Position numbers and translations under genes: made by a program
Shown here: in pieces, positions 2,857-49,990 of the stretch
Layout: every line of letters begins with the position of its first letter
How positions within the stretch are numbered: the first letter of the stretch is position 1
The notes under the pieces: model-generated
Database searches by the model: none
Seen by the model: the letters and a program-made list of their open reading frames with translations, nothing else
What the model was told of the DNA's origin: nothing
NCBI GenBank assembly: GCA_041650915.1
Contig: JBAZKE010000004.1
Coordinates: 36,179-100,178 of the forward strand
Origin: Patescibacteria group bacterium
Lineage (GTDB): Bacteria > Patescibacteriota > Patescibacteriia > UBA10025 > JAHIVO01
Length of the DNA stretch: 64,000 bases
Reading direction: 5' to 3'

Positions 2857-3174
2857 TTATTGACTTGAAAACTTCTTACGCGCTTTGCGCTTCGCCGGCA
2901 CTTCGGCATCAGCACAGTACACAGTATACTTCCAACCTGACATTGGGTCATACTCTATTGAGGCAACTATGCTCTTGTATTGACCCGACTTCATCTTGAT
3001 CGTCCAAGCCCACTGCTCTGCATTGATTTTGCCCGCCCGCCGCGTCACCGTCTCCGCAATATCCCCAACCTTGAACTCCTGCACCTCATAGAGCGCTCTG
3101 CACAAAACTCCGTCGTTTCTTGGGTCAGAATAGTCAATAAAGGCTGGTTTGACGTCGGGTGTTGCGAGTTGCAT
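2857..3174 (-). CDS. hypothetical protein
   Basis: 105-aa ORF. Confidence 0.35.
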   Translation of the reverse strand: MQLATPDVKPAFIDYSDPRNDGVLCRALYEVQEFKVGDIAETVTRRAGKINAEQWAWTIKMKSGQYKSIVASIEYDPMSGWKYTVYCADAEVPAKRKARKKFSSQ

Positions 3175-3239
3175 GCTGTTCCTTTGTTAAGTTACCGTAA
3201 CTGCTATAGTTATAGCACAGTGCCACCCACCTGTCAAGC

Positions 3240-3800: not shown

Positions 3801-3944
3801 AATGCACTTCCTACAGTTTAATAGTTGATCTAGGTTCCCAGACCTTGGGGATTTGCCTCCTCCCCAAGATACTGATTAATTCCACGCGCGGCTCACAGAA
3901 GCAGCGTAAACGGGTGGAACAGCTCGAAATAGTTTCGTCATGTC

Positions 3945-3973
3945 TTGACAAGTCCTAACTTCCACCTTACACT
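3945..3973 (+). promoter_or_regulatory. sigma70-type promoter TTGACA-N17-TACACT driving TnpB-like copy 1
   Basis: consensus -35 and near-consensus -10 with 17-nt spacer; the same architecture is conserved upstream of copy 2. Confidence 0.5.
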
Positions 3974-3999
3974 GTAGTTGAAGGAGACAGCTCTGTCAA

Positions 4000-5640
4000 G
4001 TGAAAAAGAAGGCAAAAGACACCCGACCCATCGTTTCGTACGCGACACGTGTACCTACAGAATGCTGCGCTTATTGTGAATCTTATGCCTTAATTTTCAA
4101 TACGGCTCAACGACGCCTTCATGCAGCTCGACAAAAACCTAATTTTGATGCAAATCGAACTAAGCGAGAGCATCAAATAAAATATGGAATCAATGCTAGA
4201 CAATACAACGGAATCAAAATAGATCTAGACGGTAAAGAAAGTTCCCGAGCCGAAACCCATAAAGCCCATGTAATAGCCACAGAGGCATCCGTTATAGCAC
4301 TGACCAAGAAGGTTAAAGACCTAAAAGCAGAAATTAAAAAAGAAGATAAAGCTAAAACGCGTTTTATCCTACATCAAAAACAACGACGTCTGTATAATCA
4401 AAGAGCAAAACTTAAGACACTTGAGAGCACAAAACCAAAGCTCTGTTTCGGTTCCAAAAAGTTGTTTTTGGCTCAGTATAATTTGAAAGAAAATGGATAC
4501 AAAAACCACGTAGAGTGGAAAAAAGTCTGGAGAAAAACCCGTAGTAGTACATTTGTACTGGTCGGTAGCTCAGGAGAAACACAAGGGAATTCTATAGCTC
4601 AACTCGTGGAACAACAGGATGGCTCTTTCACTTTAACGCTTAGAACTGCGCCTGGTTTAGTTGGTCAGTTTGGTCCTGTGGTTGTCTTTGAAAATCTTGA
4701 ATTCCACTATGATCGAAATGGCAAAAACAATGCTATTCATGACATTAGAGCTGCTTTAGAGCAGGGTGATGCTCTGACGTTCAGGTTCCATAGAGGTAAA
4801 AAGAATCGATGGACAGTACATGTTTCACTGCATCGAAGTGAAGTTGAAATCGTTTCAAATCGACGCAATGGTCGTGTAGGAGTAGATATCAATAATGGTA
4901 GTCTAGACGCGGCTTTTGTTGATTTTGAAGGGAACATGAAAGACTATCTTTCTATTCCGTTCAAAACTAGCAAAAGCGCTAATCATGATCAAATTGCTGC
5001 TTCTATTGGAGAAGCAGTAAAGAAAATCATTGCTTTTGCTGTTCTACATAAAGCTCCGGTAGTGATTGAAAAACTTGATTTCACTGGCAAAAAGAAAGCC
5101 ATGAGGGATCAAGGTTTACCTCAAAGAGCGATGTTGGCTGCTTTTTCTTATAGCGCTGTTACAGCCATAATTAAGAGTAGAGCATGGCGAGAGGGTATTG
5201 AAGTTTTCTTTGTTACTCCTGCTTATAGTTCAGTTATTGGTTATGTAAAGTATCAATCCCAATATGGAATAAATTCAGGTGTTGCAGCAGGGATCGTTTT
5301 GGCAAGGAGAAACCTAAGAAGATCCGAGAGATGTCCCTTATCCGAGGCCTACACTCCTAAATCCCCAGAGGACGGTTTAAGACATGTATGGTCCCGTTGG
5401 GCTGCTCTCGTGCGTAACATTCGTGCCAAAGCAAAGATGAAAATCTTTGTCAGACGACACGATTGGTTCCGCAAAAGTGGTGCCTTGAGCACGGCAGAGG
5501 TCAAGCTTTTATGTACCGACGAGGAAACTCGTCAAAGGCATAAGGGCAAGGTGAAAACCACTTCTGTTCTGGATGAAAGTTCCAGCACGAATCGTCGGAA
5601 AAACAGTTCGTCCGGCGTCAAAGTTGTGTGTAATACATGA
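4000..5640 (+). CDS. TnpB/Cas12-family protein, copy 1 (546 aa): RuvC-I and RuvC-II intact, zinc finger absent, RuvC-III aspartate absent
   Basis: GVDINNG (D296), VVIEKLDF (E357) and TPAYSSV motifs in TnpB order and spacing. Where TnpB has C-x2-C...C-x2-C plus DRDxNAAxNI there is only YGINSGVAAGIV. GTG start. About 40% GC versus about 57% backbone. Confidence 0.7.
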   Translation: MKKKAKDTRPIVSYATRVPTECCAYCESYALIFNTAQRRLHAARQKPNFDANRTKREHQIKYGINARQYNGIKIDLDGKESSRAETHKAHVIATEASVIALTKKVKDLKAEIKKEDKAKTRFILHQKQRRLYNQRAKLKTLESTKPKLCFGSKKLFLAQYNLKENGYKNHVEWKKVWRKTRSSTFVLVGSSGETQGNSIAQLVEQQDGSFTLTLRTAPGLVGQFGPVVVFENLEFHYDRNGKNNAIHDIRAALEQGDALTFRFHRGKKNRWTVHVSLHRSEVEIVSNRRNGRVGVDINNGSLDAAFVDFEGNMKDYLSIPFKTSKSANHDQIAASIGEAVKKIIAFAVLHKAPVVIEKLDFTGKKKAMRDQGLPQRAMLAAFSYSAVTAIIKSRAWREGIEVFFVTPAYSSVIGYVKYQSQYGINSGVAAGIVLARRNLRRSERCPLSEAYTPKSPEDGLRHVWSRWAALVRNIRAKAKMKIFVRRHDWFRKSGALSTAEVKLLCTDEETRQRHKGKVKTTSVLDESSSTNRRKNSSSGVKVVCNT

Positions 5641-5646
5641 CTATGG

Positions 5647-5713
5647 TTTTAGGAACGGTGGAACAGCATGATGGTGCCGGTTAGTATAGTTCCTAAAAGT
5701 TTTGCGCTTTATT
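5647..5713 (+). terminator. possible hairpin terminator / RNA 3' structure downstream of TnpB-like copy 1
   Basis: 10-bp perfect inverted repeat TTTTAGGAAC...GTTCCTAAAA with 32-nt loop, then GTTTTGCGCTTTATT. It overlaps the putative guide region. Confidence 0.3.
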
Positions 5714-5945
5714 ACGTTGACGTTTAGGTTTAATCCGACTGTCCAAGTCCCCATGGTCTTGGCTTAGTCTAACGGATGCGCTACCCCGAGCACAGCCGAA
5801 CGTCCTTACGCTTAGGCTGGCTTGCTCTTCATCAGGATAAATCCTGACTTTGTAGGCGTAATTTCTCAATCTTGCTCTCTACGTTGATTTTTTTACGGCT
5901 CGGGCTTTAAGCCATTCTTTGGTTGGAGTCGTGCGGCGCATCGTT

Positions 5946-6902
5946 TTATTCTTTCCAGAACGGAATTTTGCTTCTAGGATCCCATTCTGTGGGTATCTGC
6001 AGCCCGCCACCTTCGCTTACGGGGCCGCCCCACGTGTCACCTGCGTAGCCCACAGGTTCCTGTAGACCTTTAGTTACAGCGCAGCCCTCGCGCGGCCCAG
6101 GAATAGCCCCCGTTTTTTCCATCCATGGAATGGCTATTTTGCGCCATGCGTCAAAACCAGGGTCCGATTCTCGATCTCGACTGGACTGCCTATGCGCCAG
6201 AATGTACTTAATAGTCTGTCCGTTGCGCGCAAATTCCGCCATGAGCATTTCAAGTAGCTTATCCGCTGCCTTGACTTGTGCGTCGGTAATGGGGTGCGGG
6301 CCGCCCCCCGGTTTCCACCAGTAGCCTACTTTCCCTTCGGGATTTCCAGTGAATTCAATTCCTACTGTCCACATCGACGTTCCGTGTGAATGCCATATGG
6401 CCATTTCCCACGGGTGACACAAAATTATTTTGCCACCAAGCGTTACGCTGATGTGCGCGTTGACTGTAAAATACCGCTCTGGGTTTTCGCCCATTTCACA
6501 TGCAGTGCGATGGAGAACTATTCCGGTGATGTCCGACCATGCTCTGGTATGTCGACCATTTTTTGGCGGTTTAATTTTACCTCTGTAATCCAGCACCTGT
6601 ATTTCGTTTTCTGTCGTTTGGGTGCTCGGTGCTACTCTCGGCAGAGTAGTACTCATTCTTACTTCAGCCGCCGCCCACGTCGTTCCTCCGACAATCCCAT
6701 CGGCAGACAATCCTGCGGACTTCTGAAAAGCTTTTGTCGCCCCTTCGCACGCGGGACCGAACACGCCATCTGCTCCCCAGGACCCGATGTCATACCCCAG
6801 GGCGATCAAAACCTCTTGCCATCTACGAACTGCAGGCCCTTTCATTCGTGGGCTATCGAGAAAAATCCAGGTGGAATTTGCCATGATGCTCCGGGTAGGC
6901 AC
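5946..6902 (-). CDS. endolysin / cell-wall hydrolase (PG_binding_1 domain plus amidase-like catalytic domain)
   Basis: WQEVLIALGYDIGSWGADGVFGPACEGATKAFQKSAGLSADGIVGGTTW matches the peptidoglycan-binding repeat; C-terminal VLHRTA...H region is Amidase_2-like. Confidence 0.6.
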   Translation of the reverse strand: MPTRSIMANSTWIFLDSPRMKGPAVRRWQEVLIALGYDIGSWGADGVFGPACEGATKAFQKSAGLSADGIVGGTTWAAAEVRMSTTLPRVAPSTQTTENEIQVLDYRGKIKPPKNGRHTRAWSDITGIVLHRTACEMGENPERYFTVNAHISVTLGGKIILCHPWEMAIWHSHGTSMWTVGIEFTGNPEGKVGYWWKPGGGPHPITDAQVKAADKLLEMLMAEFARNGQTIKYILAHRQSSRDRESDPGFDAWRKIAIPWMEKTGAIPGPREGCAVTKGLQEPVGYAGDTWGGPVSEGGGLQIPTEWDPRSKIPFWKE

Positions 6903-6944
6903 TAGGCCAAAAGTTCCTCCCGTTTTACAGTTGTCGGCCGCGGT

Positions 6945-7418
6945 CTACGCCACGAGGTACTCGCGATTTCGACGCTCTCCCTGGAACTGCAGCTGTCCGG
7001 TTTTGGCCAGGCGACGGCAGTGGTAGCCCACAGTCTTGGCATCCAGCTCCAGCGCTTCCGCGATTAGACCAGGGCCAGCACTTCCTGCATGCTCTCGCAG
7101 AAAATCCATGACCTGGGTCGAGATCACTGTGGTCTTCTCCCTGGGCGCACGTGGGCGCTGCGCCTTGGGGGCGGGTGGTGCAGGCGTATAATCAGGATTG
7201 GTCTGGTACGCTCGGGTATTTCGATTGCCCTGTACGACCACGGCACCGAGGCGCGCCAGATTTCGGGCACAATAGTGCACGATGCGTAGGTCTACGCCGA
7301 GCACCTTGGCAATCTCCTGCGGAGTCACTGGGGTGCTTGCTAGCTCCAGCATCTGAGTTTTGACTGCCGAAATGGCGCTGCGTGGCGTGTAGGATTTCCT
7401 GGTCTTTGTCTCGCTCAT
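6945..7418 (-). CDS. putative DNA-binding regulator with two winged-HTH-like segments
   Basis: TPQEIAKVLGVDLRIVHYCARNLARLG and GLIAEALELDAKTVGYHCRRLAKTG helix-turn-helix-like segments. Confidence 0.45.
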   Translation of the reverse strand: MSETKTRKSYTPRSAISAVKTQMLELASTPVTPQEIAKVLGVDLRIVHYCARNLARLGAVVVQGNRNTRAYQTNPDYTPAPPAPKAQRPRAPREKTTVISTQVMDFLREHAGSAGPGLIAEALELDAKTVGYHCRRLAKTGQLQFQGERRNREYLVA

Positions 7419-7513
7419 AATGTTTCCTATCTCCTGTTTGGCGTTGTTCGCCGGTTACATCTACTATAGCACGATGGAGAGACTCTGCAAGGCAAAAGTG
7501 ACGCCGGACGGCG

Positions 7514-7906
7514 TTATAGTGTCGATTTTAGTCGTAGGCCACGATTCTCGGGGTCGAGCTGCCTGGTTACCGCGCGCATGATTGCCAGGAAATAGAAGCT
7601 CGAAACTGTGTGGCAGAGCTGGCCTGCCGCCGCTTCGACTCTGGCAATCAAAGCATCGTGGACTTCTACACCGTAAATTTCTGTTTCCGACGCATACCAC
7701 GGGTTGCGCGGAAAGCCCATCGTGAGTTTTCCAGATTCAATTTCCGTGCATAGGTCTTCCACGGCGTAGCGGACATATTTTTGCGCGGTATGCCGGTGCT
7801 CTCGAGCACACCACCGCAAAGCCCGGACGATTGCTCCGGGCAATCTGACAGAAGTCCAGCGTCGGACACGCTGAACCTTTTCTACAGTGGGGCGTCCAGC
7901 TTTCAC
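7514..7906 (-). CDS. hypothetical protein
   Basis: 130-aa ORF; stop/start overlap with the upstream gene. Confidence 0.4.
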   Translation of the reverse strand: MKAGRPTVEKVQRVRRWTSVRLPGAIVRALRWCAREHRHTAQKYVRYAVEDLCTEIESGKLTMGFPRNPWYASETEIYGVEVHDALIARVEAAAGQLCHTVSSFYFLAIMRAVTRQLDPENRGLRLKSTL

Positions 7907-8571
7907 AGTGAATTGAGTTTGCGCTGAATAGTTTCCAGAATTTGACTGAGCTTAGTGCTGTCGCTCGCTACACTTTGCAGTACTTCGACTTGCGCTTTTA
8001 ATTTTTCAATTTCACTTCGCAGTGGTTTTGCATAGGCTTCGGCGAATTCGATTCGCTCTTGGTTCCATTGCTCCGACGTCAAACAGACTCCTTCTCGGAG
8101 TTTACTGATTTCTGTGCGCGCTTCGTCGAGTTGCCGGGACAGCGCACGACTCAAGTGATCTGGATCACCGCACCGCAGTAACGCATTTTCCAGATGGTTC
8201 TGTGTGTCCACGAGTTCTTGTACGCGCGCCTCACGCTCTTCTTTTTCTGCCTGGAGTTGTTGCTCCAAATGTGCTACTTCTTCGACCAAGCCTAGATTAC
8301 GCTCCATCACATAACCGGCGAATTTGTGCTCCTGGCCGGGATGTGTGGTGTAGCTACCGTCTATATTGTATGTAGTTTCGGTGCCACATGAGATAGTCCA
8401 TCCGTCTCGCATTGTTTCTGCTGTAATGCAAGTAGAACTACCGCAGTGTGGACAGAAAATATTTTCTTTATCGGTCATGTTGCTATCCTGTTCAGAAGGG
8501 TAATTCTGAGTCCAAGATCGGACCTGAGACGTCTTTGTTTTCGCTGTGCTCTTTCGGCGGTGCTGCCGCAA
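7903..8571 (-). CDS. hypothetical coiled-coil protein with a Cys zinc-ribbon
   Basis: 222-aa ORF; CPHCGSS...C motif. Confidence 0.45.
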   Translation of the reverse strand: MRQHRRKSTAKTKTSQVRSWTQNYPSEQDSNMTDKENIFCPHCGSSTCITAETMRDGWTISCGTETTYNIDGSYTTHPGQEHKFAGYVMERNLGLVEEVAHLEQQLQAEKEEREARVQELVDTQNHLENALLRCGDPDHLSRALSRQLDEARTEISKLREGVCLTSEQWNQERIEFAEAYAKPLRSEIEKLKAQVEVLQSVASDSTKLSQILETIQRKLNSL

Positions 8572-8736
8572 GCCACATAATGTAATCAGGTTGGTTCGGG
8601 CGTTCTTTATAGCGATTGGGCAGTATCATAATTACGGTGCCGCCAAGGCGTCCCCGCAGGTACTCGTTGCCGGCCTTGGAAGTCGTCTTCCATAGACCGC
8701 CCAGATTCAATAGTGGTGCTCTGTCGTCGCTCATGC

Positions 8737-9360
8737 TCATTTTCTTTCTAGATCGTCATCTGGTGAACGAGCATTTCCGTCGGTATTGAACAGTTCCAGG
8801 ATGGCGGTGTCCATCGCGTGCTCAATCGCCTCGGTGGTGCTGGCGTTGCGTGGGATTGACGCTACAAACTTGAAGAGTCCGTGGGGATCGCTCCAGGTTT
8901 CATCACGTAGTTCTCGATGCACTCGATATTGCTGGTCCAGCGGAATCTCTTTTTTGGTTCTGCTGATGACCGCCACGACGCCGCGAAGGAAATTTTCAGG
9001 GCATTGGTGCTCGTGGAAGAAAAAATCCCAGTTGTCGCAAATAGTGCCGCGGTCATCCTGGGCTAGTCCGTCATATTCCGTCACGATGAACAACTCGTGA
9101 CCTGGCTGCATGTCATCTGGATCGAGTTTCAGCAGCACATAGCACGGCCATGATTTACGCTCACGCGTCGTGACCTCGACCTCATGGTCGTTCACGATTT
9201 TGAACATGACGTCCGTTCTGCACTCTGGATTTCCGCACTGCCACGGCCCGGCTGTGCATGGTGTCCGGTCAAGCAAATGGTCGATCCCAAACCAATGCGT
9301 ACCACATCCAGGGCACCAAAACCCGTGTTTGGTCGTCGTGATGGTTTCGATCGGCGTCAT
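8737..9360 (-). CDS. hypothetical protein (CPGCG zinc-ribbon motif)
   Basis: 207-aa ORF. Confidence 0.45.
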   Translation of the reverse strand: MTPIETITTTKHGFWCPGCGTHWFGIDHLLDRTPCTAGPWQCGNPECRTDVMFKIVNDHEVEVTTRERKSWPCYVLLKLDPDDMQPGHELFIVTEYDGLAQDDRGTICDNWDFFFHEHQCPENFLRGVVAVISRTKKEIPLDQQYRVHRELRDETWSDPHGLFKFVASIPRNASTTEAIEHAMDTAILELFNTDGNARSPDDDLERK

Positions 9361-9365
9361 GTTGT

Positions 9366-9647
9366 TTACTCCTCCGTGAGAAACCGCTGAACCTCGCGGG
9401 TGGACTGCAAAATTAACTCATGCGCCGCTGGGCCCGTCGTAGGGACTGGAATGTCCAGTTTGTGGTCGCGGTAGTATTGCAGCACTATGTTGTAGACGTC
9501 CTGCAAGTCTGCCAGGGCTTCGGCCAAAGTGTCGCCCGTCGCGCTGCAGGTGGTCCAGGACCAATCAGGCAACCACGTGATCCAGTAAGGCGTTTCACCT
9601 GGCGCCACGATGCTGCCGACCGGGTACTGGTCGAATGTGTAGGTCAT
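9366..9647 (-). CDS. hypothetical protein
   Basis: 93-aa ORF in an operon-like array. Confidence 0.4.
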   Translation of the reverse strand: MTYTFDQYPVGSIVAPGETPYWITWLPDWSWTTCSATGDTLAEALADLQDVYNIVLQYYRDHKLDIPVPTTGPAAHELILQSTREVQRFLTEE

Positions 9648-9648
9648 G

Positions 9649-9990
9649 CTACTTTCCTGCCTCGGTTAAGATCTGCTGCATTTCCTCGAGCGACAACTTT
9701 TTCAATTGTCGTGCCAAATCGTCATGCTGCGCTTTCTTCTGACGCGCCAATGCTGTCGCTCTGACGTCCTTTTCCTTGGCGATTCTGGTTTGGCGTTCAG
9801 TCGAGGTTTCATCCCGCGATCCAGTAACTTGCCACTCACCGTCTTCCGTCTCCCTCAGGTCCAGATTGCCAAAACCAAGGTTTTGTGCGATCTTTTGCAC
9901 TCTTTGCAACTCCGCGATCAGACTGTCCAGAGTCCCATCGCTTTCTGTTATTAGATCGAATTCTTTGTGCATTCTGTGTTGGCGTTTCAC
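9649..9990 (-). CDS. hypothetical protein
   Basis: 113-aa ORF. Confidence 0.4.
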   Translation of the reverse strand: MKRQHRMHKEFDLITESDGTLDSLIAELQRVQKIAQNLGFGNLDLRETEDGEWQVTGSRDETSTERQTRIAKEKDVRATALARQKKAQHDDLARQLKKLSLEEMQQILTEAGK

Positions 9991-10322
9991 GTCGGCCTCA
10001 TCGCCATGACCAAAACCATGGCCTCGGCTTTGATTAAGTCTACCTCGGCGGCCCGCAGTTCCCGCTGTTCCGCGTCGCGCCGGTCCTCTAAGTAGACAGT
10101 ATTGTGTCGGTAATCTTCGTCAGAGATGGGATGCGGAATGAACGGCAGCAGTACACTGTTCTCCCCTTGATAGCAAGGCTCCAGTGACATTTTGTAGTTG
10201 CAGTAATCTTGGTGCAGCATGTAGATGTCAGTGCCGACACGCGAGACCTCGTGCTTCGCCTTCTCAACGGCCTCGCGGGCAGCGACGACGGCTTTGGCGG
10301 CCTTATCGAGTTTTTGTGACAT
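9987..10322 (-). CDS. hypothetical protein
   Basis: 111-aa ORF; overlapping stop/start. Confidence 0.4.
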   Translation of the reverse strand: MSQKLDKAAKAVVAAREAVEKAKHEVSRVGTDIYMLHQDYCNYKMSLEPCYQGENSVLLPFIPHPISDEDYRHNTVYLEDRRDAEQRELRAAEVDLIKAEAMVLVMAMRPT

Positions 10323-10323
10323 G

Positions 10324-11133
10324 TTATGGCTTACTTTCTGGCCAACCTTTCAGCCGCAGCAGTTTACTCTCGATCGATGCGCCATCTACGTAGCGGTAAT
10401 ACTCGTCATCGTATCCATAACCACGGAGCGGTTTGCCGTTGTCTTTCCGATCGTCGGCGTCTCTGCGGCTGATCTCGTCGTGCCAGGACCAGAGAAACCC
10501 GTTAAGATAACGTGTTCTGGGCTGGCATACCAATGCGGTTTTGGCCAACCGAAAAAGGTCTTTTTCAGCCCATACGTGTCGATAGCCGCACAAAAGTTCT
10601 AGAACAGCGGCCTTCTCTTTGGGTGTTAGATTGACTTCATTGTTTTCTGTTACTAAGCCAAACAAAGGATTGAAAACAAGATGGCGATCCTCGTAGTGCA
10701 GGACAAAAGTACCCCAACACGGCACCAGCGACTTCAGTAGACACTCCACCTGATAAAAGACGGTGTGGTTCTCCTGCTCGCGAAATTGTAACCTGTATAC
10801 ACATTCCGCTACCGCGTCCACACTTTTGCTGCGTAAAATTTTGTATTCCGCGCCCTTTTTAGCTACTTCGGCTTTGGCCTCTGCCGCCTCGCGCAACTCC
10901 TGTGCACGGGCCTCCCGTCGTTTCTCGGCGTTGGTTTTCTTGACGGTGTACTCGATGCCGGCAGGCAGCAGCACCCGCAGGGCATTGTCTTGGGCATCGA
11001 ATACAAATCGGCCCGGTTCGTCCTGGGCCAACCGCTGCAGCACGGCCTTGGGGAACACACGGCCATAGTGATCGGGCTGGTCGGCCTTCCACAGCACGGC
11101 CGTCGTGACTCTGGCTTGCTCGTTGTGTGTCAT
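10324..11133 (-). CDS. hypothetical protein
   Basis: 269-aa ORF preceded by promoter TTGACA-N17-TAGAAT ending 6 nt before the ATG. Confidence 0.5.
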   Translation of the reverse strand: MTHNEQARVTTAVLWKADQPDHYGRVFPKAVLQRLAQDEPGRFVFDAQDNALRVLLPAGIEYTVKKTNAEKRREARAQELREAAEAKAEVAKKGAEYKILRSKSVDAVAECVYRLQFREQENHTVFYQVECLLKSLVPCWGTFVLHYEDRHLVFNPLFGLVTENNEVNLTPKEKAAVLELLCGYRHVWAEKDLFRLAKTALVCQPRTRYLNGFLWSWHDEISRRDADDRKDNGKPLRGYGYDDEYYRYVDGASIESKLLRLKGWPESKP

Positions 11134-11139
11134 GGCATC

Positions 11140-11168
11140 ATTCTACTCGGCAGAGCCGCGGTTGTCAA
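11140..11168 (-). promoter_or_regulatory. sigma70 promoter TTGACA-N17-TAGAAT, near-leaderless
   Basis: read on the minus strand; the -10 ends 6 nt before the ATG at 11133. Confidence 0.45.
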
Positions 11169-11437
11169 GGCGTAGTGCGTAGTTTTAGTAGCACATCGGT
11201 GAAGTAGTGCCGCCCGACCGCGACGGCATCACGGCGCATTTGTTCCAGTTGCTCCAGGTCAGCCGACACCACTCGAATTGTTCTGGGTTGCTCGTGGAAC
11301 ATGCTGTGTTGCACTGTGCAACCGGGCACCTGCGACAATTCTCTGCAAAATTCGCTGATTTCGTCTAATGTCATTAGGACAGCAGTCATTGACAGCACAT
11401 ATTCAGGTTGGGCGGCGGCTCGGTTATCAGTCAACAT
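11165..11437 (-). CDS. hypothetical protein
   Basis: 90-aa ORF. Confidence 0.4.
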   Translation of the reverse strand: MLTDNRAAAQPEYVLSMTAVLMTLDEISEFCRELSQVPGCTVQHSMFHEQPRTIRVVSADLEQLEQMRRDAVAVGRHYFTDVLLKLRTTP

Positions 11438-11446
11438 TCAGCACCT

Positions 11447-11731
11447 TTAATTTTTGTCATTCGTGAGCATTGACGTCATGGCAGCCAACTCAAATGCCTC
11501 GGCAACGGCCGGGCGCAGCAATTCCAGAAAATCTTCGGGAAACATCTGCTCGGCCGATGCCATGACGTTTTGCTGCAGACGTGCCGCATACATGCGAAAT
11601 TTGCGGGCGGTCTCGCCTGGGTCGTCATGCGGAAATGTCGTTTTGAGTTTTTCGGCCAAGCCGTGTAGTGCCCGTACACTCGCGGCCGTGATGTCGGCCG
11701 CGATTTTGGTTAATTCTGGATGCTGCTGCAT
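11447..11731 (-). CDS. hypothetical protein
   Basis: 94-aa ORF. Confidence 0.4.
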   Translation of the reverse strand: MQQHPELTKIAADITAASVRALHGLAEKLKTTFPHDDPGETARKFRMYAARLQQNVMASAEQMFPEDFLELLRPAVAEAFELAAMTSMLTNDKN

Positions 11732-11733
11732 GG

Positions 11734-11883
11734 TTACACCGGCGGCGCGATCGGAAACCAGGCAGAATCGGCCGGCGGGTACTGTTCGTCGAGGCCCAAA
11801 TAGGCCGCGACAAAGCCAATGCCGTCGTGTCCGATTACAAGATAGCGATTCAGGTCCATCATCTGGGAAACGAATGTGATCAT
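11734..11883 (-). CDS. small hypothetical protein (internal ATG start with SD ggagcaa)
   Basis: The ORF track gives 11734..12015. The ATG at 11883 has an SD and avoids a 113-nt overlap with 11903..12154. Confidence 0.3.
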   Translation of the reverse strand: MITFVSQMMDLNRYLVIGHDGIGFVAAYLGLDEQYPPADSAWFPIAPPV

Positions 11884-11902
11884 GGTGTTGCTCCTTTTGA
11901 CT

Positions 11903-12154
11903 TCAGTCGTCGTCGTTAAATGCTTCACGCATGGCTCGCCGGATATTCGGGTCACCCGCATCGTAGGGACTAGATCTGTCGGCTGTGCCGCGTCGTGGTT
12001 TACTCTGCTGCGCATACAGGTCTCGCACCTTGGCTTCCAGATCCGCGACCTTGGCGGTCAGGGCCTCAACTTCACGCTGTAGTTGATCACACCGATTCAT
12101 CGCTCCGCTCCTTAGTTGACCTATCGTTAGGGATAAATCTTCTCGATTACCCAC
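11903..12154 (-). CDS. hypothetical coiled-coil protein
   Basis: 83-aa ORF. Confidence 0.35.
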   Translation of the reverse strand: MGNREDLSLTIGQLRSGAMNRCDQLQREVEALTAKVADLEAKVRDLYAQQSKPRRGTADRSSPYDAGDPNIRRAMREAFNDDD

Positions 12155-13671
12155 AGACCATAAACGTTACACGTGTCCACAACCTCCATGTGACGCGCAG
12201 GTCTCGCGTAATACTGGGCGTCGAACTCCGCCAAGGTCATGTGGTTGTTGGTACAAAACTTGATGATGGCTTCCTGTTTGGGACTCACAGGCAGCGGAAG
12301 TGACCGGTAGACATGTGCGAGGGCCCGCCAAAACCCCATGGCGGTCTCGTCCATTCGGTTCTTCCAGCCCGGCACCACTGTGACCTCACCCCAACGCTTG
12401 ACTCTCAGGACCGGCTGGATTTTGGCTTCGGGGTCGTCGGGTCCGCGGTGCGGCAGGTACAGCACCAGAAGGTCATCGGAGTCAGGACAAAACAGCAGTG
12501 TTGGCTGGGGGTCGGGGTTCGCTGCTGGTGCGACAAAAGTGACGCTAGGGTTAGACTGAGCCAAGCCAGTGACATCGGGGCAGGGTGTGGTCTGATCTGT
12601 GCCTGGTTGCGCCCCAGCGATTACTCGACAAATTATTTCTAGCGTTTTGGAACCATCGACTTTGTCTTCATTCGGCACCACGTCAGTCACGTACCCCATG
12701 ATACTGCCGGCACCGTTGTGGTCGTGTGTCACGATGCAAACGGCGTCGCCCGCGCCGAAGCGCCCACAGGCTTTAAGATAATTAAGACTGATGAAGCACT
12801 CCTTTGCGGTGTTATACATGATTGGGTACAGCAGCCAAGCCGTGACATCGGTCATGCCGATGACGACCTGGGCATCGGATACAGTTGAACACTGAGGATT
12901 TGATTGATTGTACGCCATTTTATTCTCCTGCTTTGGCTTTGCGCCGAGATCATGGCCTTTGTCGTGGCTGTACTGTACACCCGATACTGAGTTCTGCATG
13001 CACCGTAGGGTTTCGGCGTCATTCTCTGACGACCAGTCGGGCGGTTGCTGGACCATGGTGTGATACGCACCGGGCCTATGGTAGCGCTGCATTGCTTTAC
13101 TGGCCCCGGCCGTGATGGCGGTCATGATGCTTTCCGGAGTTTTATGTGCCCCGGCCTCGATAGCGACATTGAAGGTTTTCAGATTTTCCTCAGAGATTTT
13201 AGAAAAATTGGTAGGAACCATATTGGCCAAATTCTCGATCTCGTTGTGCTGGCGGCGAGCCTTCAGGAGGTCTAGGGCCTCGGTCTCATGCTCAGGTGAT
13301 GCGAACCAAGCAAGCTCCATGGGAAAAGGTGCAGTCCCTCCAGCCTGATATTCAGCATAGCGGTCTACCGCCCGCATGGCGCAGAACACATGGTCTATAT
13401 TGTCAAAACAAAACGATGTGCCTGGCCAGTGCTTTGCGTTCCAGTTTAAAATAGCGGTGGCAACGGCGTCTCGCGTAGCTATTGTCGTGCTCGTGTCCAC
13501 ACATTCCTCGTCGCCGCACCGAGGGCACCGGACTCTTGCGAAGCCTGTATCGTGACCTTTTTCTATGATGATGTCGATCTTGGGCCACACGATGTCGGCA
13601 ATGCTGTCAAGGGCACTGGGGCACCTTGGGCACGGCCCACAGAGAATACTGTATCGCGCGTAGTTCGGCAT
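12127..13671 (-). CDS. 514-aa protein with an N-terminal Lar-like Cys4 zinc-ribbon domain (possible restriction-alleviation fusion)
   Basis: N-terminus CGPCPRCP...VRCPRCGDEEC...AVATAILNWNAKH resembles the Lar family pattern (two CxxC, then AI..WN); the remaining roughly 430 aa are uncharacterised. Confidence 0.4.
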   Translation of the reverse strand: MPNYARYSILCGPCPRCPSALDSIADIVWPKIDIIIEKGHDTGFARVRCPRCGDEECVDTSTTIATRDAVATAILNWNAKHWPGTSFCFDNIDHVFCAMRAVDRYAEYQAGGTAPFPMELAWFASPEHETEALDLLKARRQHNEIENLANMVPTNFSKISEENLKTFNVAIEAGAHKTPESIMTAITAGASKAMQRYHRPGAYHTMVQQPPDWSSENDAETLRCMQNSVSGVQYSHDKGHDLGAKPKQENKMAYNQSNPQCSTVSDAQVVIGMTDVTAWLLYPIMYNTAKECFISLNYLKACGRFGAGDAVCIVTHDHNGAGSIMGYVTDVVPNEDKVDGSKTLEIICRVIAGAQPGTDQTTPCPDVTGLAQSNPSVTFVAPAANPDPQPTLLFCPDSDDLLVLYLPHRGPDDPEAKIQPVLRVKRWGEVTVVPGWKNRMDETAMGFWRALAHVYRSLPLPVSPKQEAIIKFCTNNHMTLAEFDAQYYARPARHMEVVDTCNVYGLWVIEKIYP

Positions 13672-13685
13672 GCTGGTCTCCTTAC

Positions 13686-14216
13686 CTATTTGCTCATACA
13701 GATTTCAAAGCATCGACGCTGCACCCTGGCGTCCCGCAGTGCATTGTGCTGGGGCAGTGATGAATCTGACAGTGCGGCAAATTCCTCGCGATTCAGGTCG
13801 GGATCCAGCCCTTTCAGTTTGAAGACGGTCGCGAGGTCAAATGGAATGTAGAACACGTTGCTGGGCAGATTCTGGGCACCACCAAACAACTCGCAAAATA
13901 ACACAAAATCATACGCCAAAACATCGCTCCAGATTTCCACAGAAGATTCAAACTGTCGTAGCCACTTTGACAATGTCATAGCTATGACTTCGGTGTTGTT
14001 CAGTACCTCAAACGTGTTGGGGCCCGCATGGTGCTTCGTCTGTAGGTACAGTCCGGACAACACATTCTCCTCAATCCAGTCGTCTACTTGGTCTAAATCA
14101 CAATCAGTGAATTCCGCGTAGAACTCCTCGCCAGTTTCGGCCACGAGCGCCAGACTAATGAGCGTGGTGCCCTGATGCAGGCCCGTGAATTCCGTGTCGA
14201 GAAAAAGTCGCGTCAT
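13686..14216 (-). CDS. DEDDh-type 3'-5' exonuclease (DnaQ/oligoribonuclease-like)
   Basis: ExoI FLDTEFTGL and ExoIII HNALRDA motifs. Confidence 0.55.
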   Translation of the reverse strand: MTRLFLDTEFTGLHQGTTLISLALVAETGEEFYAEFTDCDLDQVDDWIEENVLSGLYLQTKHHAGPNTFEVLNNTEVIAMTLSKWLRQFESSVEIWSDVLAYDFVLFCELFGGAQNLPSNVFYIPFDLATVFKLKGLDPDLNREEFAALSDSSLPQHNALRDARVQRRCFEICMSK

Positions 14217-14248
14217 GCTGTCTCCTAGCCCACTGTTTTACAGCGGCC

Positions 14249-15058
14249 TCACCTGTTGGCGACCGCATAAGCCAAACTGCTGTACAGTTCCTCAGCGCCG
14301 CAGCAACTCAAGCCTGACATCTGACCGTCATTCAACTCAACGACCCGCCAGACCCCATCGGTCCGCTCAGCACAATCGAACACCCAGAACGGGATGGAGT
14401 TGCCAACCGCCCGGATGACCGACTGGACGAAATCGTCCGGCACATCATCCGGGCTGGGGATTTTGCTACCATCGAACAGATCCAACTGGCTCGCCCAGTA
14501 ATACCCAGACGCCACGACAGCTCCGCGAAATACGAAAAAGCGAAATTCCTTCGTGACGGGAGCACCCGACAACGAGGTGCCGTACTGAACGAATGGCTCG
14601 TAGGTTCTAAATACTACTCCTTGGTCGGCGATCATGGGGTCTTCCATCAAGCGGAAATACACCTCGCGGGCAGCATCGCGATCCTGCGCGAACATATGGG
14701 TCCGCCAGAGGTTCTTGCGGGAATTTGTCGCGCCCTTCAGCACGAAGGGGCCTGGATGTTGGCTGGCCGTGAATTCAGCCAGCCCGAACCACGTCTCGGG
14801 CGTTAGGTCACGCAGGTCACGATACCAATTCTGCATATCGGCGACATATTCGTGTTGCTGCCGAGTCGTCAGCATGGTGCCGCCGAGGTGATGGACATCG
14901 CGTTCCAGTTCGTGGTAATACGGCAAGACGGAATACCGGCCCAGTACGACATCACCCGGTTTTACCTGGGCACGGGACTCGATGACATCGGAATGCCGGC
15001 AGGCTATTTCGTATTCGCCGAGTTCTGCAAGACTATGACGAAATAGGATTTTGGTCAT
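14249..15058 (-). CDS. hypothetical protein, possibly ATP-grasp-like
   Basis: 269 aa; FVLKGATNSRK and C-terminal WRVVELNDGQMSG weakly resemble ATP-grasp motifs. Confidence 0.35.
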   Translation of the reverse strand: MTKILFRHSLAELGEYEIACRHSDVIESRAQVKPGDVVLGRYSVLPYYHELERDVHHLGGTMLTTRQQHEYVADMQNWYRDLRDLTPETWFGLAEFTASQHPGPFVLKGATNSRKNLWRTHMFAQDRDAAREVYFRLMEDPMIADQGVVFRTYEPFVQYGTSLSGAPVTKEFRFFVFRGAVVASGYYWASQLDLFDGSKIPSPDDVPDDFVQSVIRAVGNSIPFWVFDCAERTDGVWRVVELNDGQMSGLSCCGAEELYSSLAYAVANR

Positions 15059-15073
15059 ATGGCTCCTGGTGGG

Positions 15074-15346
15074 TTACTCGTAGTCGCTCTCTTGGTTCCT
15101 CTCGATGCGTTTGACCCGGTTTCGGTCCTGCTGCGACAGTTTCTCCCAAATTTCGTCCATGAACGCACAAATCGCGTCGTCCTGCTGGTCCGTGGTGGTG
15201 CCGTCATTGGCCCGACCAAGCAGAAGCACAAACGCGAGTTTCAGGTAAAAGTCGGCTAGGGTAAGGACTCGGTAGTCCTCGGGAAGGACCCCCGGAATGG
15301 ACACGCCCTGGTACCGCTGCCATTCTGGCTTTTTGATCTCAGACAT
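15074..15346 (-). CDS. small hypothetical protein (start trimmed to the ATG with GGGGA SD)
   Basis: The ORF track gives 15074..15514, but its N-terminal extension is R/G-rich low-complexity and overlaps the neighbouring gene. Confidence 0.3.
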   Translation of the reverse strand: MSEIKKPEWQRYQGVSIPGVLPEDYRVLTLADFYLKLAFVLLLGRANDGTTTDQQDDAICAFMDEIWEKLSQQDRNRVKRIERNQESDYE

Positions 15347-15378
15347 GCCGTCCCCATTTAACATGATGTTGAAATTCG

Positions 15379-15612
15379 CTAACCATCTTGGATCTCCCCT
15401 CGCTCCGCCATTTCTGCCTTGACGGCCTCGGCCAGGTCCTCTGGAGTATAGCGCGGGCTCAGGAGGATTTCGGTTTTGTCGTGTACTTCCATTTCTGCGC
15501 CTTCCATAATCCATCCATCGATTTCATCTTGTGACAAATCATCGATGTCTGATAGGTCTACTTCAACAGACCCCTTGCAGGTCATTACGTAATCACAGAT
15601 CAGTTTCATCGC
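15379..15612 (-). CDS. small acidic hypothetical protein
   Basis: ATG at 15612 is preceded by GGAGGAA SD; the longer track ORF to 15687 would run into the conserved TnpB-like promoter block. Confidence 0.3.
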   Translation of the reverse strand, partial: AMKLICDYVMTCKGSVEVDLSDIDDLSQDEIDGWIMEGAEMEVHDKTEILLSPRYTPEDLAEAVKAEMAERGEIQDG

Positions 15613-15680
15613 GTTCCTCCGCATCACGCTCGTGGGTCGAGAGATGGGTTCCGAACAGCTCGAAATAATTTCATCAGGCA

Positions 15681-15709
15681 TTGACAATCTTCGACTTTCA
15701 CCTTACACT
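15681..15709 (+). promoter_or_regulatory. sigma70-type promoter TTGACA-N17-TACACT driving TnpB-like copy 2
   Basis: same architecture and flanking sequence as 3945..3973. Confidence 0.5.
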
Positions 15710-15735
15710 GTAGTTGAAGGGAATCGATCTGTCAA

Positions 15736-17376
15736 GTGAGAAAGAAGGCAAAAGACACCCGCCTCATCGTTTCGTACGCGACACGTGTGCCTACCGAATG
15801 CATTGATTATTGTGAATCTTATGCCTTAATTTTTAACACAGCGCAACGATGCCTTCATGCGGCTCGACAAAAACCAGGTTTTGATGCCAATCGAACTAAA
15901 CGAGACTATCAAATAAAATACGGAATTAATGCCAGGCAGTACAACGGCATTAAAATCGATCTAGACGGTAAAGAAAGCTCCCGAGCTGAAGTCCATAAAG
16001 CACACGGCATCTCAACAGCAGCATCCGTAGCTGCACTGACTAAGAAGGTTAAAGACCTAAAAGCAGAAGTTAAAAAAGAAGATAAAGCTAAAACACGTTT
16101 TATCCTGCATCAAAAACAACGTAGACTGGGAAGCCAAAAAGCAAAACTTAAAACACTCGAAAGCACAAAGCCTAAACTCTGTTTCGGTTCAAAAAAGCTG
16201 TTTCTGGCTCAATACAACTTGAAAGAAAACGGTTACAAGGATCACGTTGAATGGAAGAAAGCCTGGAGAAAAACCCGTAACAGCACGTTTGTACTCGTAG
16301 GTAGCTCAGGAGAAACCCAAGGAAACTCCATAGCACAACTTGTTGAACAACCCGATGAGTCTTTCACTTTAACGCTCAGAACTGCTCCTGGACTAGTTAA
16401 CCAATTTGGGCCTATTGTCGTTTTTGAAAAGCTTGAATTTCACTATGACCGAAGCGGCAAAAACGCAGCTGTTCATGACATTAGAGCAGCTTTGGAACAA
16501 GGTGATGCTCTGACGTTTAGATTCAATCGAGGTAAAAAAGGCAGATGGACAGTACATGTTTCACTTCACAGAAGTGAAGTCGAAATCGTTTCAAACCGAC
16601 GCAATGGCCGTGTTGGAGTAGATATCAATAATGGCAGCCTGGATGCTGCTTTTGTTGATTTTGAAGGGAATATGAAGGCCTACCTTTCTGTTCCGTTCAA
16701 AACTAGTAAAAGTGCAAATCACGACCAAATACAAGCGTCAATTGGAGAAGCAGTTAAACAAATCATTGCTTTTGCTGTAGAGCAAAAAGCGCCTGTAGTG
16801 ATTGAAAACCTTGACTTTACTGGCAAAAAGAAAGCCATGAAGGATCAAGGTTTGCCTCAAAGAGCTGTGTTGGCTGCTTTTTCTTACAGTGCAGTAACGG
16901 CTATAATTAAAAGCAGAGCATGGCGAGAAGGCATTGAACTATTTACCGTTAATCCTGCGTATAGTTCAGTTATTGGTTGTGTAAAGTATCAATCCCAATA
17001 TGGAATAAATTCTGGAGTAGCTGCAGGAATTGTTTTGGCAAGGCGAAACCTAAGAAAATCCGAGAGATGTCCCTTATCCGTGGCCTACACTCCTAAATCC
17101 CCAGAGGACGGTTTAAGACATGTATGGTCCCGTTGGGCAGCTCTCGCGCGAAACATTCGTGCCAAAGCAAAGATGAAAATCTTTGTTCGACGACATGATT
17201 GGTTTCGCAAAAGTGGTGCCTTGAGCACGGCAGAGGGCAAGCTTTTATGTACCGAAGGAACATCTCTTCAAAGGCATAAGGGCAAGGTGAAAACCACTTC
17301 TGTTCTGGATGAAAGTTCCAGCACGAATCGTCGGAAAAACAGTTCGTCCGACGTCGTGGTTAAATGTAATGTTTGA
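15736..17376 (+). CDS. TnpB/Cas12-family protein, copy 2 (546 aa), paralog of 4000..5640 with the same RuvC-III/ZnF loss
   Basis: About 90% aa identity to copy 1; NPAYSSVIGCVKYQSQYGINSGVAAGIV with no zinc finger and no catalytic Asp; AT-rich. Confidence 0.7.
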   Translation: MRKKAKDTRLIVSYATRVPTECIDYCESYALIFNTAQRCLHAARQKPGFDANRTKRDYQIKYGINARQYNGIKIDLDGKESSRAEVHKAHGISTAASVAALTKKVKDLKAEVKKEDKAKTRFILHQKQRRLGSQKAKLKTLESTKPKLCFGSKKLFLAQYNLKENGYKDHVEWKKAWRKTRNSTFVLVGSSGETQGNSIAQLVEQPDESFTLTLRTAPGLVNQFGPIVVFEKLEFHYDRSGKNAAVHDIRAALEQGDALTFRFNRGKKGRWTVHVSLHRSEVEIVSNRRNGRVGVDINNGSLDAAFVDFEGNMKAYLSVPFKTSKSANHDQIQASIGEAVKQIIAFAVEQKAPVVIENLDFTGKKKAMKDQGLPQRAVLAAFSYSAVTAIIKSRAWREGIELFTVNPAYSSVIGCVKYQSQYGINSGVAAGIVLARRNLRKSERCPLSVAYTPKSPEDGLRHVWSRWAALARNIRAKAKMKIFVRRHDWFRKSGALSTAEGKLLCTEGTSLQRHKGKVKTTSVLDESSSTNRRKNSSSDVVVKCNV

Positions 17377-17404
17377 CTATGGTTTTAGGAACGGTACAGT
17401 AGTC

Positions 17405-17755
17405 TCAGGATTTACTGCTCCACCAGCTCAGTTCGTGTCTTTTTATCCTGCCTGTGCCATGGCACACCGGATGGTCAGGGCCATCCCAACCAGCGGCGCA
17501 CCCACAACATCCTGGGCAATCTACCTCCTCTAAATCCGGATTTGCTTCGCCCCGCGCATCACTCTCTGCTTTCTCGGCCTCGTTGTCCATGTGGTCCAGG
17601 ATTAGCCGCACCTGCATGGTGTCCATGCTCATCAGCCGGGCGATTTGTTCTGGTGTCTGGTGCATTACGTCCCGCTGCCACACCAGGGCTTTTGCACGGG
17701 CCTGCAGAAAGTCACCCCACGGGTGCGGATTCATCACGTTCCTCCTTGGTAGCAC
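17405..17755 (-). CDS. hypothetical protein with possible HTH (TPEQIARLMSMDTMQVRLIL) and Cys cluster
   Basis: 116-aa ORF; its stop is 5 nt after the conserved 3' end of TnpB-like copy 2. Confidence 0.4.
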   Translation of the reverse strand: MLPRRNVMNPHPWGDFLQARAKALVWQRDVMHQTPEQIARLMSMDTMQVRLILDHMDNEAEKAESDARGEANPDLEEVDCPGCCGCAAGWDGPDHPVCHGTGRIKRHELSWWSSKS

Positions 17756-36590: not shown

Positions 36591-37243
36591 TACTTCTGCC
36601 CCAGGATGTCGATGCCGGCCGCCGCCTCCACGAGCTGTGTCGCCATCTCGATGAGCGGAACAGCATGGTCATACGTCGCGGCCGTCAGGGCCAGTCCGGC
36701 GACCTGATTAGCCCGATCGGCCATGGGGTGCTGGGCCAGCGCCTCGGTCGCGGCCATCACGAGATAGCAAGAACCGAAATCCAACAGCGCCTTGCCGTGC
36801 GGAGTCGAGAAGAATGCCTTGGGGAACTTCTTGCCCAGGATTTTCTCGACCTGGGCGATCAGGGCCCGGTGGGCCATCCGGGCGCCGGCCTGCGCGACAC
36901 CCGCCTGCACGGCTGACTTGGCCTTCGTGTTGGTCTTGCTGACAACATCCTGTACCTTCGTCATGGTGGACTCCCGAGTAAGATTGACTCTCATGTTGGT
37001 CTCCTTGTTCTGTGGGGTTGCTAATTTTAGTGCCGCACAGTCGAACGACATTACGTCTACCCAGCATTCCTCTCCATCAGAGACTTCAACCGCAAAAGTG
37101 CGTTCATTTTCGTTAACCTCAGTCACTCGCGCTCTATAGGCACGAGCTTCTTCAAGTGAGTAGCCGTGTCCTATAAAATTTGCGTGTCCTTGTCGACTGA
37201 GTTTCAAAACATCGCCAATCTTGAATGGACATTTGGCTCGCAT
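36590..37243 (-). CDS. paralog of the repeat protein (one repeat module plus the same C-terminal domain)
   Basis: CPFKIGDVLKLS...YRARVTEV module and a conserved C-terminal roughly 110 aa. Confidence 0.5.
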   Translation of the reverse strand: MRAKCPFKIGDVLKLSRQGHANFIGHGYSLEEARAYRARVTEVNENERTFAVEVSDGEECWVDVMSFDCAALKLATPQNKETNMRVNLTRESTMTKVQDVVSKTNTKAKSAVQAGVAQAGARMAHRALIAQVEKILGKKFPKAFFSTPHGKALLDFGSCYLVMAATEALAQHPMADRANQVAGLALTAATYDHAVPLIEMATQLVEAAAGIDILGQK

Positions 37244-48240: not shown

Positions 48241-48262
48241 TGCTCGCTAAAATTCACTAGCA

Positions 48263-49802: not shown

Positions 49803-49803
49803 T

Positions 49804-49983: not shown

Positions 49984-49990
49984 TCGGTGT

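Follow-up and report, generated by a model that had tools for sequence, protein, structure and literature searches.

Two diverged copies of a gene for a 546-aa TnpB-derived protein lie in a 64,000-nt stretch of contig JBAZKE010000004.1 (assembly GCA_041650915.1, forward-strand positions 36,179 to 100,178; this whole stretch is referred to as the window). What does a TnpB that has lost both its zinc finger and the third aspartate of its RuvC active site do for the DNA that carries it? The original prediction for this locus saw in these proteins candidate nuclease-dead RNA-guided DNA binders resembling the TnpB-derived transcription factors known as TldRs. The evidence described below points to a different answer, namely that each unit is probably a non-autonomous, tnpA-deleted element of the IS607 family in a phage-like genome, of the OMEGA type (short for obligate mobile element-guided activity), retained or homing by means of a guide derived from its flank. 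The anatomy of the units is directly visible: behind an NGGG motif comes the left end, then a promoter and ribosome-binding site (RBS), a RIIIr-4-lineage tnpB, a predicted omegaRNA and finally the right end. In effect, the units do not represent a new class; each is an IS607-type element without tnpA whose TnpB comes from a major clade that is catalogued and functionally uncharacterised.

Two copies of one unit

Both units lie on the plus strand, are about 1.74 kb long (3917-5659 and 15653-17395) and have unrelated flanks. Homology starts at 3917/15653, where the sequence reads GAACAGCTCGAAATA..., and ends at 5659/17395, which is the T after ...AGGAACGG (the same end can also be written ...GACTATGGTTTTAGGAACGG). 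The two units are 86% identical over 1,746 nt (BLASTN), and searches with tblastn and blastn found no third copy in the 64-kb window. Thus, the two plus-strand units that had been predicted do exist, while their identity is lower than the 88% or so first given and the ends first placed at 5664 and 17399 were 4-5 nt too far. The predicted promoter-like sequence TTGACA-N17-TACACT is present in both copies (3945-3973 and 15681-15709) and matches 10 of 12 consensus positions in each. The G+C content of both genes, about 40-41%, is practically the predicted 40%; the window backbone, for which 57% had been stated, varies roughly between 50 and 59% and is mostly 52-56%.

The open reading frames (ORFs) of the two units start with GTG, and their products are 89.7% identical. 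Around 135 codons differ between the copies only synonymously, compared with around 53 in which the amino acid changes, and tnpB is under purifying selection.

A TnpB without zinc finger or RuvC-III aspartate

Searches with the sequence of the 546-aa protein gave few matches to known domains. Nothing significant was found in Pfam, the PDB sequences gave only weak matches around the RuvC bridge, and in NCBIfam only the RuvC-II/bridge part of TnpB models was matched, at 33-40 bits, including the TnpB-related domain TIGR01766 at 33-38 bits against a cut-off of 32. A confident structural model calculated with AlphaFold (AF2) from the family alignment (predicted local distance difference test 82.4; predicted template modelling score 0.74) was matched by Foldseek, with a probability of 1.0, to Cas12f (E = 2e-9), Cas12m, Cas12g, Fanzor2 and ISDra2 TnpB. 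Judged from this model, the protein is TnpB-derived, as had been proposed, and has a predicted Cas12f/TnpB-type fold with WED/REC and RuvC (RNase-H-like) parts.

The protein belongs to a large family. More than 120 relatives of 375-616 aa were retrieved by database search, many of them named 'IS605 OrfB/TnpB-related', and when 1.84 billion cluster representatives were searched exhaustively, 390 clusters reached E <= 1e-30 and, with the limit relaxed to E <= 1e-10, 1,256 did so. A metagenome scan with the single protein as query returned one locus only, L033 (loci fetched for comparison are given L numbers, and database proteins P numbers). In an alignment of 103 sequences, every member has D296 (in G-V-D-x-N), N298, E357 (in I-E-K-L-D-F) and R437, and nearly every one has D360. 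There is no conserved cysteine anywhere in this alignment, and the window proteins have no cysteine pairs.

The window also encodes a canonical TnpB of 374 aa, which serves as a reference. This gene (30472-31596) is real, as the original prediction had said, and a correction is needed only for its strand, which is the minus strand. Its product matches NF040570 at 113 bits and contains CPKC...CTSCG and DSDVVGAENI. In a profile alignment to this protein, D296 and E357 pair with the RuvC-I aspartate and the RuvC-II glutamate, NPAYSS pairs with NPAYSS, and the alignment breaks off where the zinc finger of the canonical protein begins. From PAYSS to the RuvC-III helix there are 12 residues without a cysteine, whereas canonical TnpB has about 27 residues with CxxC...CxxC. 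By inspection, the canonical Y-S-N-D-S-D-V-V-G-A-E-N-I-L-E-R-T corresponds to Y-G-I-N-S-G-V-A-A-G-I-V-L-A-R-R-N. Because of this motif-to-motif correspondence, the second, catalytic aspartate of RuvC-III is assigned to G427 and the first aspartate of the D-x-D motif to N425. Consequently, the earlier registration of GVDINNG as RuvC-I and VVIEKLDF as RuvC-II is borne out, and so is the absence of the zinc finger and of the RuvC-III aspartate.

Canonical IS200/IS605 TnpBs, such as that of ISDra2 and the 374-aa protein of the window, resemble the 546-aa proteins in the WED/REC/RuvC fold, the RuvC-I aspartate, the RuvC-II glutamate, the NPAYSS spacing and a 3′ omegaRNA. By contrast, they have CxxC...CxxC and D-S-D-V-V-G-A-E-N-I, are about 170 aa shorter and match the TnpB model at 113 bits, compared with 33-40 bits. 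One genome therewith holds a typical TnpB and two zinc-finger-less ones.

The RuvC-III position varies within the family: of the 103 sampled sequences, 78 have His, 18 Gly and 7 Asp. The Gly type is always Asn-Ser-Gly (NSG) and is monophyletic in a neighbour-joining tree, within the zinc-finger-less family. This NSG sub-lineage, to which the window proteins belong, spans down to about 33-45% identity, and its sister group keeps Asp.

A predicted RNA scaffold at the gene 3′ end

Synonymous change between the two copies nearly vanishes in codons 451-480 and 511-540, as is expected from constraint on an RNA. In this region, RNAalifold predicts from eight loci a structure of 63 pairs in 11 helices, one of which is long-range and joins GGUU(C/U)C to the GGAAC at the end. 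The eight-sequence alignment has 96% of its cells paired, compared with 39-46% when the partners are slid, and 21 pairs are changed on both sides, compared with 1-5 when slid. None of 500 shuffled controls reached the observed pairing values. A covariance model made from a 195-nt core of 50 pairs finds the same structure, on the coding strand and at the gene 3′ end, in distant His-type and Asp-type viral loci and in the copies of P0080, and it matches 34 of 80 genomic loci. With 16 sequences, double changes are seen in 41 of the 50 pairs, in an alignment that was fitted to the model and thereby favours the structure. Rfam has no family for this 3′ RNA.

The scaffold, of about 195-240 nt, lies within the final codons of tnpB (the last 200-240 nt or so of the gene) and 18 nt of the 3′ untranslated region (3′ UTR), and stops exactly at the right end. 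Thus, with strong support from covariation, the gene 3′ end and 3′ UTR are predicted to encode an omegaRNA scaffold. Both parts of what had been proposed for this region, that an omegaRNA overlaps the gene 3′ end and that it stops at the homology breakpoint, agree with the covarying structure.

The C-terminal tail of about 100 aa was also considered as a functional extension of the protein, and this was rejected. Its last 64 residues (483-546) are predicted to be disordered in the AF2 model and coincide with the RNA scaffold, and the changes within these residues are amino-acid-altering rather than synonymous. Therefore, conservation of the tail is better explained by the RNA, and the protein tail is largely a by-product of the scaffold.

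As the RNA stops where homology stops, the flanking sequence would be the guide, which fits the earlier proposal of copy-specific guides at the breakpoints. With up to three mismatches allowed, neither 20-nt flank has a second match in the 64-kb window. The flank of copy 1 opens with 11 nt (GGAACAGCATG) that recur at 36657-36667 (+) and 3172-3182 (-). These recurrences were examined as targets in trans and discarded: their upstream flanks have no common motif, and one of them is the RBS and ATG of the ORF at 2857-3174. They are judged to be chance matches or translation-start context.

Transposon ends, recombinase and mobility

The ends of the units are shared with their relatives. The stretch after the stop codon that the original prediction had found conserved, GACTATGGTTTTAGGAACGGT, occurs not only in the two copies but also in 6 other loci, with proteins that are down to about 50% identical. 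Correspondingly, the right end ...TGACTATGGTTTTAGGAACGG[T/C] is common to all eight loci, and homology stops right after it. An alignment of the 5′ regions shows that the left end GAACAG[C/T]TC...CACCTTA[C/T]A[C/T]T is common to copies with and without tnpA. The conserved left and right ends have no terminal inverted repeats, and their boundaries are sharp at different insertion sites.

In close and more distant relatives these ends enclose a transposase gene. A serine-recombinase tnpA, with a MerR-like N-terminus and a resolvase domain, is located directly upstream in L033 (87% identity) and in six viral loci, and in L035 (67% identity) a gene for a 190-aa resolvase-domain protein extends into the start of the tnpB homolog. 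Among 80 loci from species-representative genomes, tnpA is upstream of tnpB in 47, and it is present in all ten contexts of P0080 (L039-L048). In the window copies, L001 and L034, precisely the tnpA ORF is missing, that is, they show a clean deletion, and therefore the tnpA promoter and RBS now drive tnpB. Since the recombinase gene is absent from both window copies and present at the homologous position in relatives, the window copies are non-autonomous derivatives.

The protein P0080, which is of the NSG type, occurs in identical form together with tnpA in at least six genomic contexts, with ends that are 100% identical and boundaries that are sharp. From identical elements at so many sites it follows that NSG-type elements have recently transposed, and the type is thus recently mobile. 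The NSG sub-lineage also includes the tnpA-carrying elements of L033 and L035. Consequently, the NSG state is old, conserved and compatible with an active transposon. The family as a whole is predominantly IS607-borne and widespread.

A reading of the units as decaying, functionless IS607 relics has to be weighed here, in view of the deletion of tnpA, the 14% divergence between the copies and the missing catalytic aspartate. Nevertheless, both ORFs are intact with a strong synonymous excess, conservation with compensatory substitutions is seen for the promoter, RBS, RNA helices and right end, and the NSG motif is clade-wide, so that there is no private lesion. Such decay is very improbable.

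The family is often present in several copies per replicon. For instance, two copies are found on several viral contigs, jumbo-sized ones included (L002/L012, L011/L013 and L025/L026), and single Dehalococcoidia chromosomes have four or more (OZ240214.1: L079, L089, L091 and L107).

Two sub-clades that are about 67% identical to each other, L034/L035 on one side and the window copies with L001/L033 on the other, each hold forms with and without tnpA. The tnpA-less forms of both have the same junction, ...GGAGAnnnATCTGTCAAGTG, which suggests recombination between autonomous and non-autonomous elements or recurrent site-specific deletion of tnpA. In addition, a mirror promoter-like site on the minus strand, TTGACA-N17-TACAGT, is kept in both window copies (3971-3999 and 15707-15735). 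The -10 element of the plus strand and the GTG start both fall within it, at least in part, and its TGTCAA portion is junction sequence that is seen in tnpA-less copies only. A divergent or antisense promoter, an operator and mere chance are all conceivable explanations for this site.

Domestication or transposon

TldRs, as described by Wiegand et al., show decay of RuvC, new associations with non-transposase genes, no identifiable transposon ends and guides that match conserved promoters, and phage-borne TldRs exist. The window units resemble them in that the protein is TnpB-derived, the RuvC-III aspartate and the zinc finger are lost, a predicted guide RNA is adjacent and the genome is phage-like. 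Thus, they might be domesticated phage TldR-like proteins, that is, nuclease-dead RNA-guided DNA binders whose copy-specific guides repress particular host or phage promoters. The replacement of both aspartates of D-x-D by G427 and N425 with no compensating acidic residue would fit this, as would the fact that both copies have their own promoter and no tnpA, and that the RIIIr-4 ortholog tested elsewhere was negative for cleavage (see below).

Nevertheless, other features of TldRs are not seen here. TldRs are shorter and often C-terminally truncated, lack transposon ends, have partners such as fliC or oppF and carry promoter-matching guides. In contrast, the transposon ends of the window units are identifiable and common to autonomous relatives; thus, at the level of sequence, the conserved ends are ordinary insertion sequence termini, an outcome that the original prediction had named as evidence against itself. 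The few neighbourhoods inspected have different adjacent genes at each locus; in these, the serine recombinase is the sole recurrent neighbour and no conserved non-transposase partner gene was seen. The guides are plain adjacent flank, with no second target in the window under the search described above. Moreover, the RuvC-I aspartate and RuvC-II glutamate are invariant across the deep NSG clade, and NSG-type elements are actively transposing together with tnpA. The context therefore argues against domestication, and the TldR-like role first suggested for these proteins is quite unlikely. The nuclease question, which the missing aspartate raises, is a separate one.

Relation to RIIIr-4 and to IS607 elements

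The protein architecture, which the original prediction did not recognise, has in fact been published. Of the five major TnpB clades of Altae-Tran et al. (PNAS 2023; PMC10691335), RIIIr-4 has a RuvC-III rearrangement from Asp to His and no C4 zinc finger, is a branch 'specifically represented in viruses' and was predicted by these authors to be active, since the change is conserved. In the work of Nety et al., ortholog no. 39 is labelled RIIIr-4 and comes from Nocardiopsis dassonvillei (529 aa). It processed its omegaRNA, yielding a 466-nt species, and the 3′ primer for this RNA, read as its reverse complement, gives ...CTGTTCAGGAACGGT, the terminus that the window elements have as well. BLASTP of the window protein against 399 aa of ortholog 39 gave E = 1e-10 over residues 125-365. 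The clade name RIIIr-4 appears only in the Altae-Tran and Nety papers in the searchable literature.

The units share with RIIIr-4 the absence of the C4 zinc finger, an altered RuvC-III with RuvC-I and RuvC-II kept, a length of about 500-550 aa, over-representation in viruses, members with serine recombinases, an omegaRNA at the gene 3′ end with a sharp boundary between scaffold and guide and, for the labelled ortholog, homology to it and a common RNA terminus, AGGAACGGT. They differ in the RuvC-III residue, as the published change is from Asp to His, whereas the window proteins and their relatives (18 of 103) have Gly, in Asn-Ser-Gly. Therefore, since most of the sampled family has His, the window proteins are relatives of the His type without its motif. 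By these features and by homology to a labelled member, they match the RIIIr-4 family, of which they would form a deep, conserved NSG sub-lineage. The family is thus known and catalogued, and functionally uncharacterised.

For the element as a whole, the closest comparison is with IS607-family transposons that carry TnpB and an omegaRNA, such as the CboIStron studied by Zedaveinyte et al. In a characterised IS607 element, the site at which TnpA integrates, TGGG with a GG core, doubles as the target-adjacent motif (TAM) of TnpB. Shared traits are a serine-recombinase tnpA upstream of tnpB in close relatives, the absence of terminal inverted repeats, a right end in GG, NGGG in the left flank, an omegaRNA over the right end, a guide from the flank and the frequency of non-autonomous, tnpA-less copies. 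By contrast with these transposons, the TnpB of the window is very divergent, with neither zinc finger nor RuvC-III aspartate, a group I intron is absent and the genome is phage-like.

Flanks and proposed mode of action

In five of six left flanks (copy 1, copy 2, L001, L035 and L038), (T/C/G)GGG is followed after 2-4 nt by GAACAG, and the right end terminates in GG. By analogy, NGGG and the GG right end fit the IS607 target and TAM, TGGG.

The steps of a possible mechanism can be taken from characterised IS605/IS607 OMEGA systems. Transcription that reads through the right end would give the RNA a guide of about 16 nt from the flanking DNA, and TnpB would bind this guide-bearing RNA. The complex might then recognise the uninterrupted allele, that is, the TAM (probably NGGG) followed by the flank sequence, which could be either the donor joint left after excision or a co-infecting relative without the insertion. 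Such recognition would favour recombination by which the element is retained or homes. To move to new sites, the element would require serine TnpA in trans, and an excised circle would have the junction ...AGGAACGG joined to TTCCGAACAG.... In short, the most likely function, by this analogy, would be selfish retention or homing via a flank-derived guide.

Several observations weigh against this account. NGGG is absent from the left flank of L033, and copy 1 has CGGG-TG in its left flank, compared with TGGG-TTCC. No empty site or excision product was recovered for the window copies in a scan of IMG/VR with the flanking proteins, so that mobility or homing of these copies themselves is inferred. 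With regard to the nuclease, D296 and E357 of the triad are present and invariant, and yet the RuvC-III position is G427 and the preceding aspartate of D-x-D is the asparagine N425. A search for an acidic or His residue that is peculiar to the Gly clade and might compensate gave none; D458 and H487 are common to the NSG lineage and its Asp-retaining sister clade. Finally, ortholog 39, which is the sole RIIIr-4 ortholog tested in the literature, was negative in the screen of Nety et al. for TAM and double-stranded DNA (dsDNA) cleavage by in vitro transcription-translation, and therefore the canonical cut-and-copy step may not apply. This result is weak evidence, because 32 of the 59 orthologs screened there were negative, many canonical ones included.

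In the same IMG/VR scan, L049 (an endolysin with 59% identity on a 197-kb viral contig) and L050 shared a single gene only. The flanking proteins of both copies showed no synteny with any of the fetched loci.

A direct repeat of 11 nt, GGTGGAACAGC, lies on either side of copy 1 (around 3912-3923 and 5657-5667), and the right flank of this copy (TGGAACAGC...) looks like its own left end (TGGAACAGCTCG). Target-site duplications would not be expected from IS607 elements. The repeat could come from insertion into a site that resembles the end junction of the element, or it could be a recombination scar.

Cleavage or binding

The Gly427 variant may cleave DNA, nick it or only bind it, with roughly an even chance that some DNA-cleaving activity is retained. 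Two non-cleaving alternatives may be considered. One is that the NSG TnpB, and perhaps that of all RIIIr-4 members, helps the transposon without cutting DNA, for instance by marking or occupying the donor joint or empty site for re-integration by the recombinase, by regulating tnpA and tnpB, or by using RuvC for omegaRNA processing only. In line with this, the third carboxylate is lost and yet elements that still transpose strictly keep D296, N298, E357 and D360, RNA processing by the RIIIr-4 ortholog came with no dsDNA cleavage in vitro, and the RuvC domain is known from the literature for 5′ processing of omegaRNA. On the other hand, a tnpA to cooperate with is lacking in the window copies, and in other nucleases of the RNase-H fold His at this position is a genuine catalytic residue. 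For the clade, activity was predicted by those who defined it (PMC10691335), and a negative ortholog counts for little in a screen in which 32 of 59 failed. A role that helps the transposon without cutting thus seems unlikely. The other alternative, which is rather doubtful, is that the NSG lineage is a naturally cleavage-deficient RNA-guided DNA binder under strong selection, both inside transposing IS607 elements and in tnpA-less phage derivatives.

If the lineage were cleavage-deficient, this would be a TnpB with a cleavage-independent role in transposon biology, such as RNA-guided recognition of the empty site that aids re-integration by the serine recombinase, or a RuvC that serves only for RNA processing. 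Logic like that of CRISPR-associated transposons would then have arisen within the simplest OMEGA elements.

With retention or homing of a non-autonomous IS607-type element as the preferred reading, what is added to the catalogued clade is a well-supported omegaRNA model with exact boundaries between scaffold and guide, evidence that the clade is predominantly IS607-borne and widespread, and a deep sub-lineage that lacks even the substitute His, with Asn-Ser-Gly in its place, though its elements still transpose. This sub-lineage offers a clean natural test of whether the benefit of TnpB to its transposon always needs DNA cutting, and a source of compact, zinc-finger-free RNA-guided DNA-binding scaffolds.

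Coordinates and genome context

Table 1. Features of the two units, in window coordinates.
Feature	Position	Strand	Remarks
Candidate target motif/TAM, left flank of copy 1	3911-3914	+	CGGG with GG core
Left end of copy 1; promoter and RBS, once those of tnpA, drive tnpB	3915-3999	+	GAACAG[C/T]TC...CACCTTACACT, common to tnpA-carrying L033 and L035
tnpB copy 1	4000-5640	+	546 aa, zinc-finger-less; RIIIr-4 family, NSG sub-lineage; D296/E357/G427
Predicted omegaRNA-like scaffold, copy 1	5418-5658	+	Core 5464-5658 closed by GGUUCC:GGAAC; two more helices in 5418-5465; covariance model 222.9 bits
Putative guide region, copy 1	5659-5675	+	TGGAACAGCATGATGGT...; boundary uncertain by 1 nt; length assumed to be ~16 nt; homology among the eight loci stops after ...AGGAACGG(T)
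Candidate target motif/TAM, left flank of copy 2	15645-15648	+	TGGG
Left end of copy 2, with promoter and RBS	15649-15735	+	Promoter-like site 15681-15709
tnpB copy 2	15736-17376	+	546 aa; database protein P0002
Predicted omegaRNA-like scaffold, copy 2	17154-17394	+	Core 17200-17394; RNAalifold, core model and covariance model
Putative guide region, copy 2	17395-17411	+	TACAGTAGTCTCAGGAT...; flank-derived, right after the right end

The contig is labelled at NCBI as a Patescibacteria metagenome-assembled genome. The phage-like character of the window is seen in its endolysin and RNase H, the former with a homolog on the 197-kb IMG/VR contig mentioned above. A nucleotide search of the INPHARED phages with the element and 25 kb of the window gave no match.

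The window also contains a CRISPR (clustered regularly interspaced short palindromic repeats) array at 46159-48650 (+), with about 28 repeats of 36-37 nt (GTTTCAATCCACGCGCCTTCACAAGGAAGGCACGAC), spacers of about 36-37 nt, a variant block at 46676-47226 and degenerate copies at the end. Type I-C genes adjoin the array on the minus strand (48810-55006), coding for Cas7/Csd2 (48810-49802), Cas8c (49991-51835), Cas5c (51835-52506) and Cas3 (52637-55006). Cas1, Cas2 and Cas4 were not seen among the ORFs scanned, and therefore the phage-like contig appears to carry an interference-only I-C system. Compared with the elements, the rest of the window and all fetched loci, the spacers gave only chance matches of 12-14 nt.

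Beside the array, a gene at 43349-44434 (-) resembles radical-SAM lysine-2,3-aminomutases of the KamA family (TIGR03820, E = 6e-120, below the equivalog cut-off). Upstream, the region 40935-41729 (+) shows a weak match to Csb2 (type I-G Cas5/6), with E = 4e-11.

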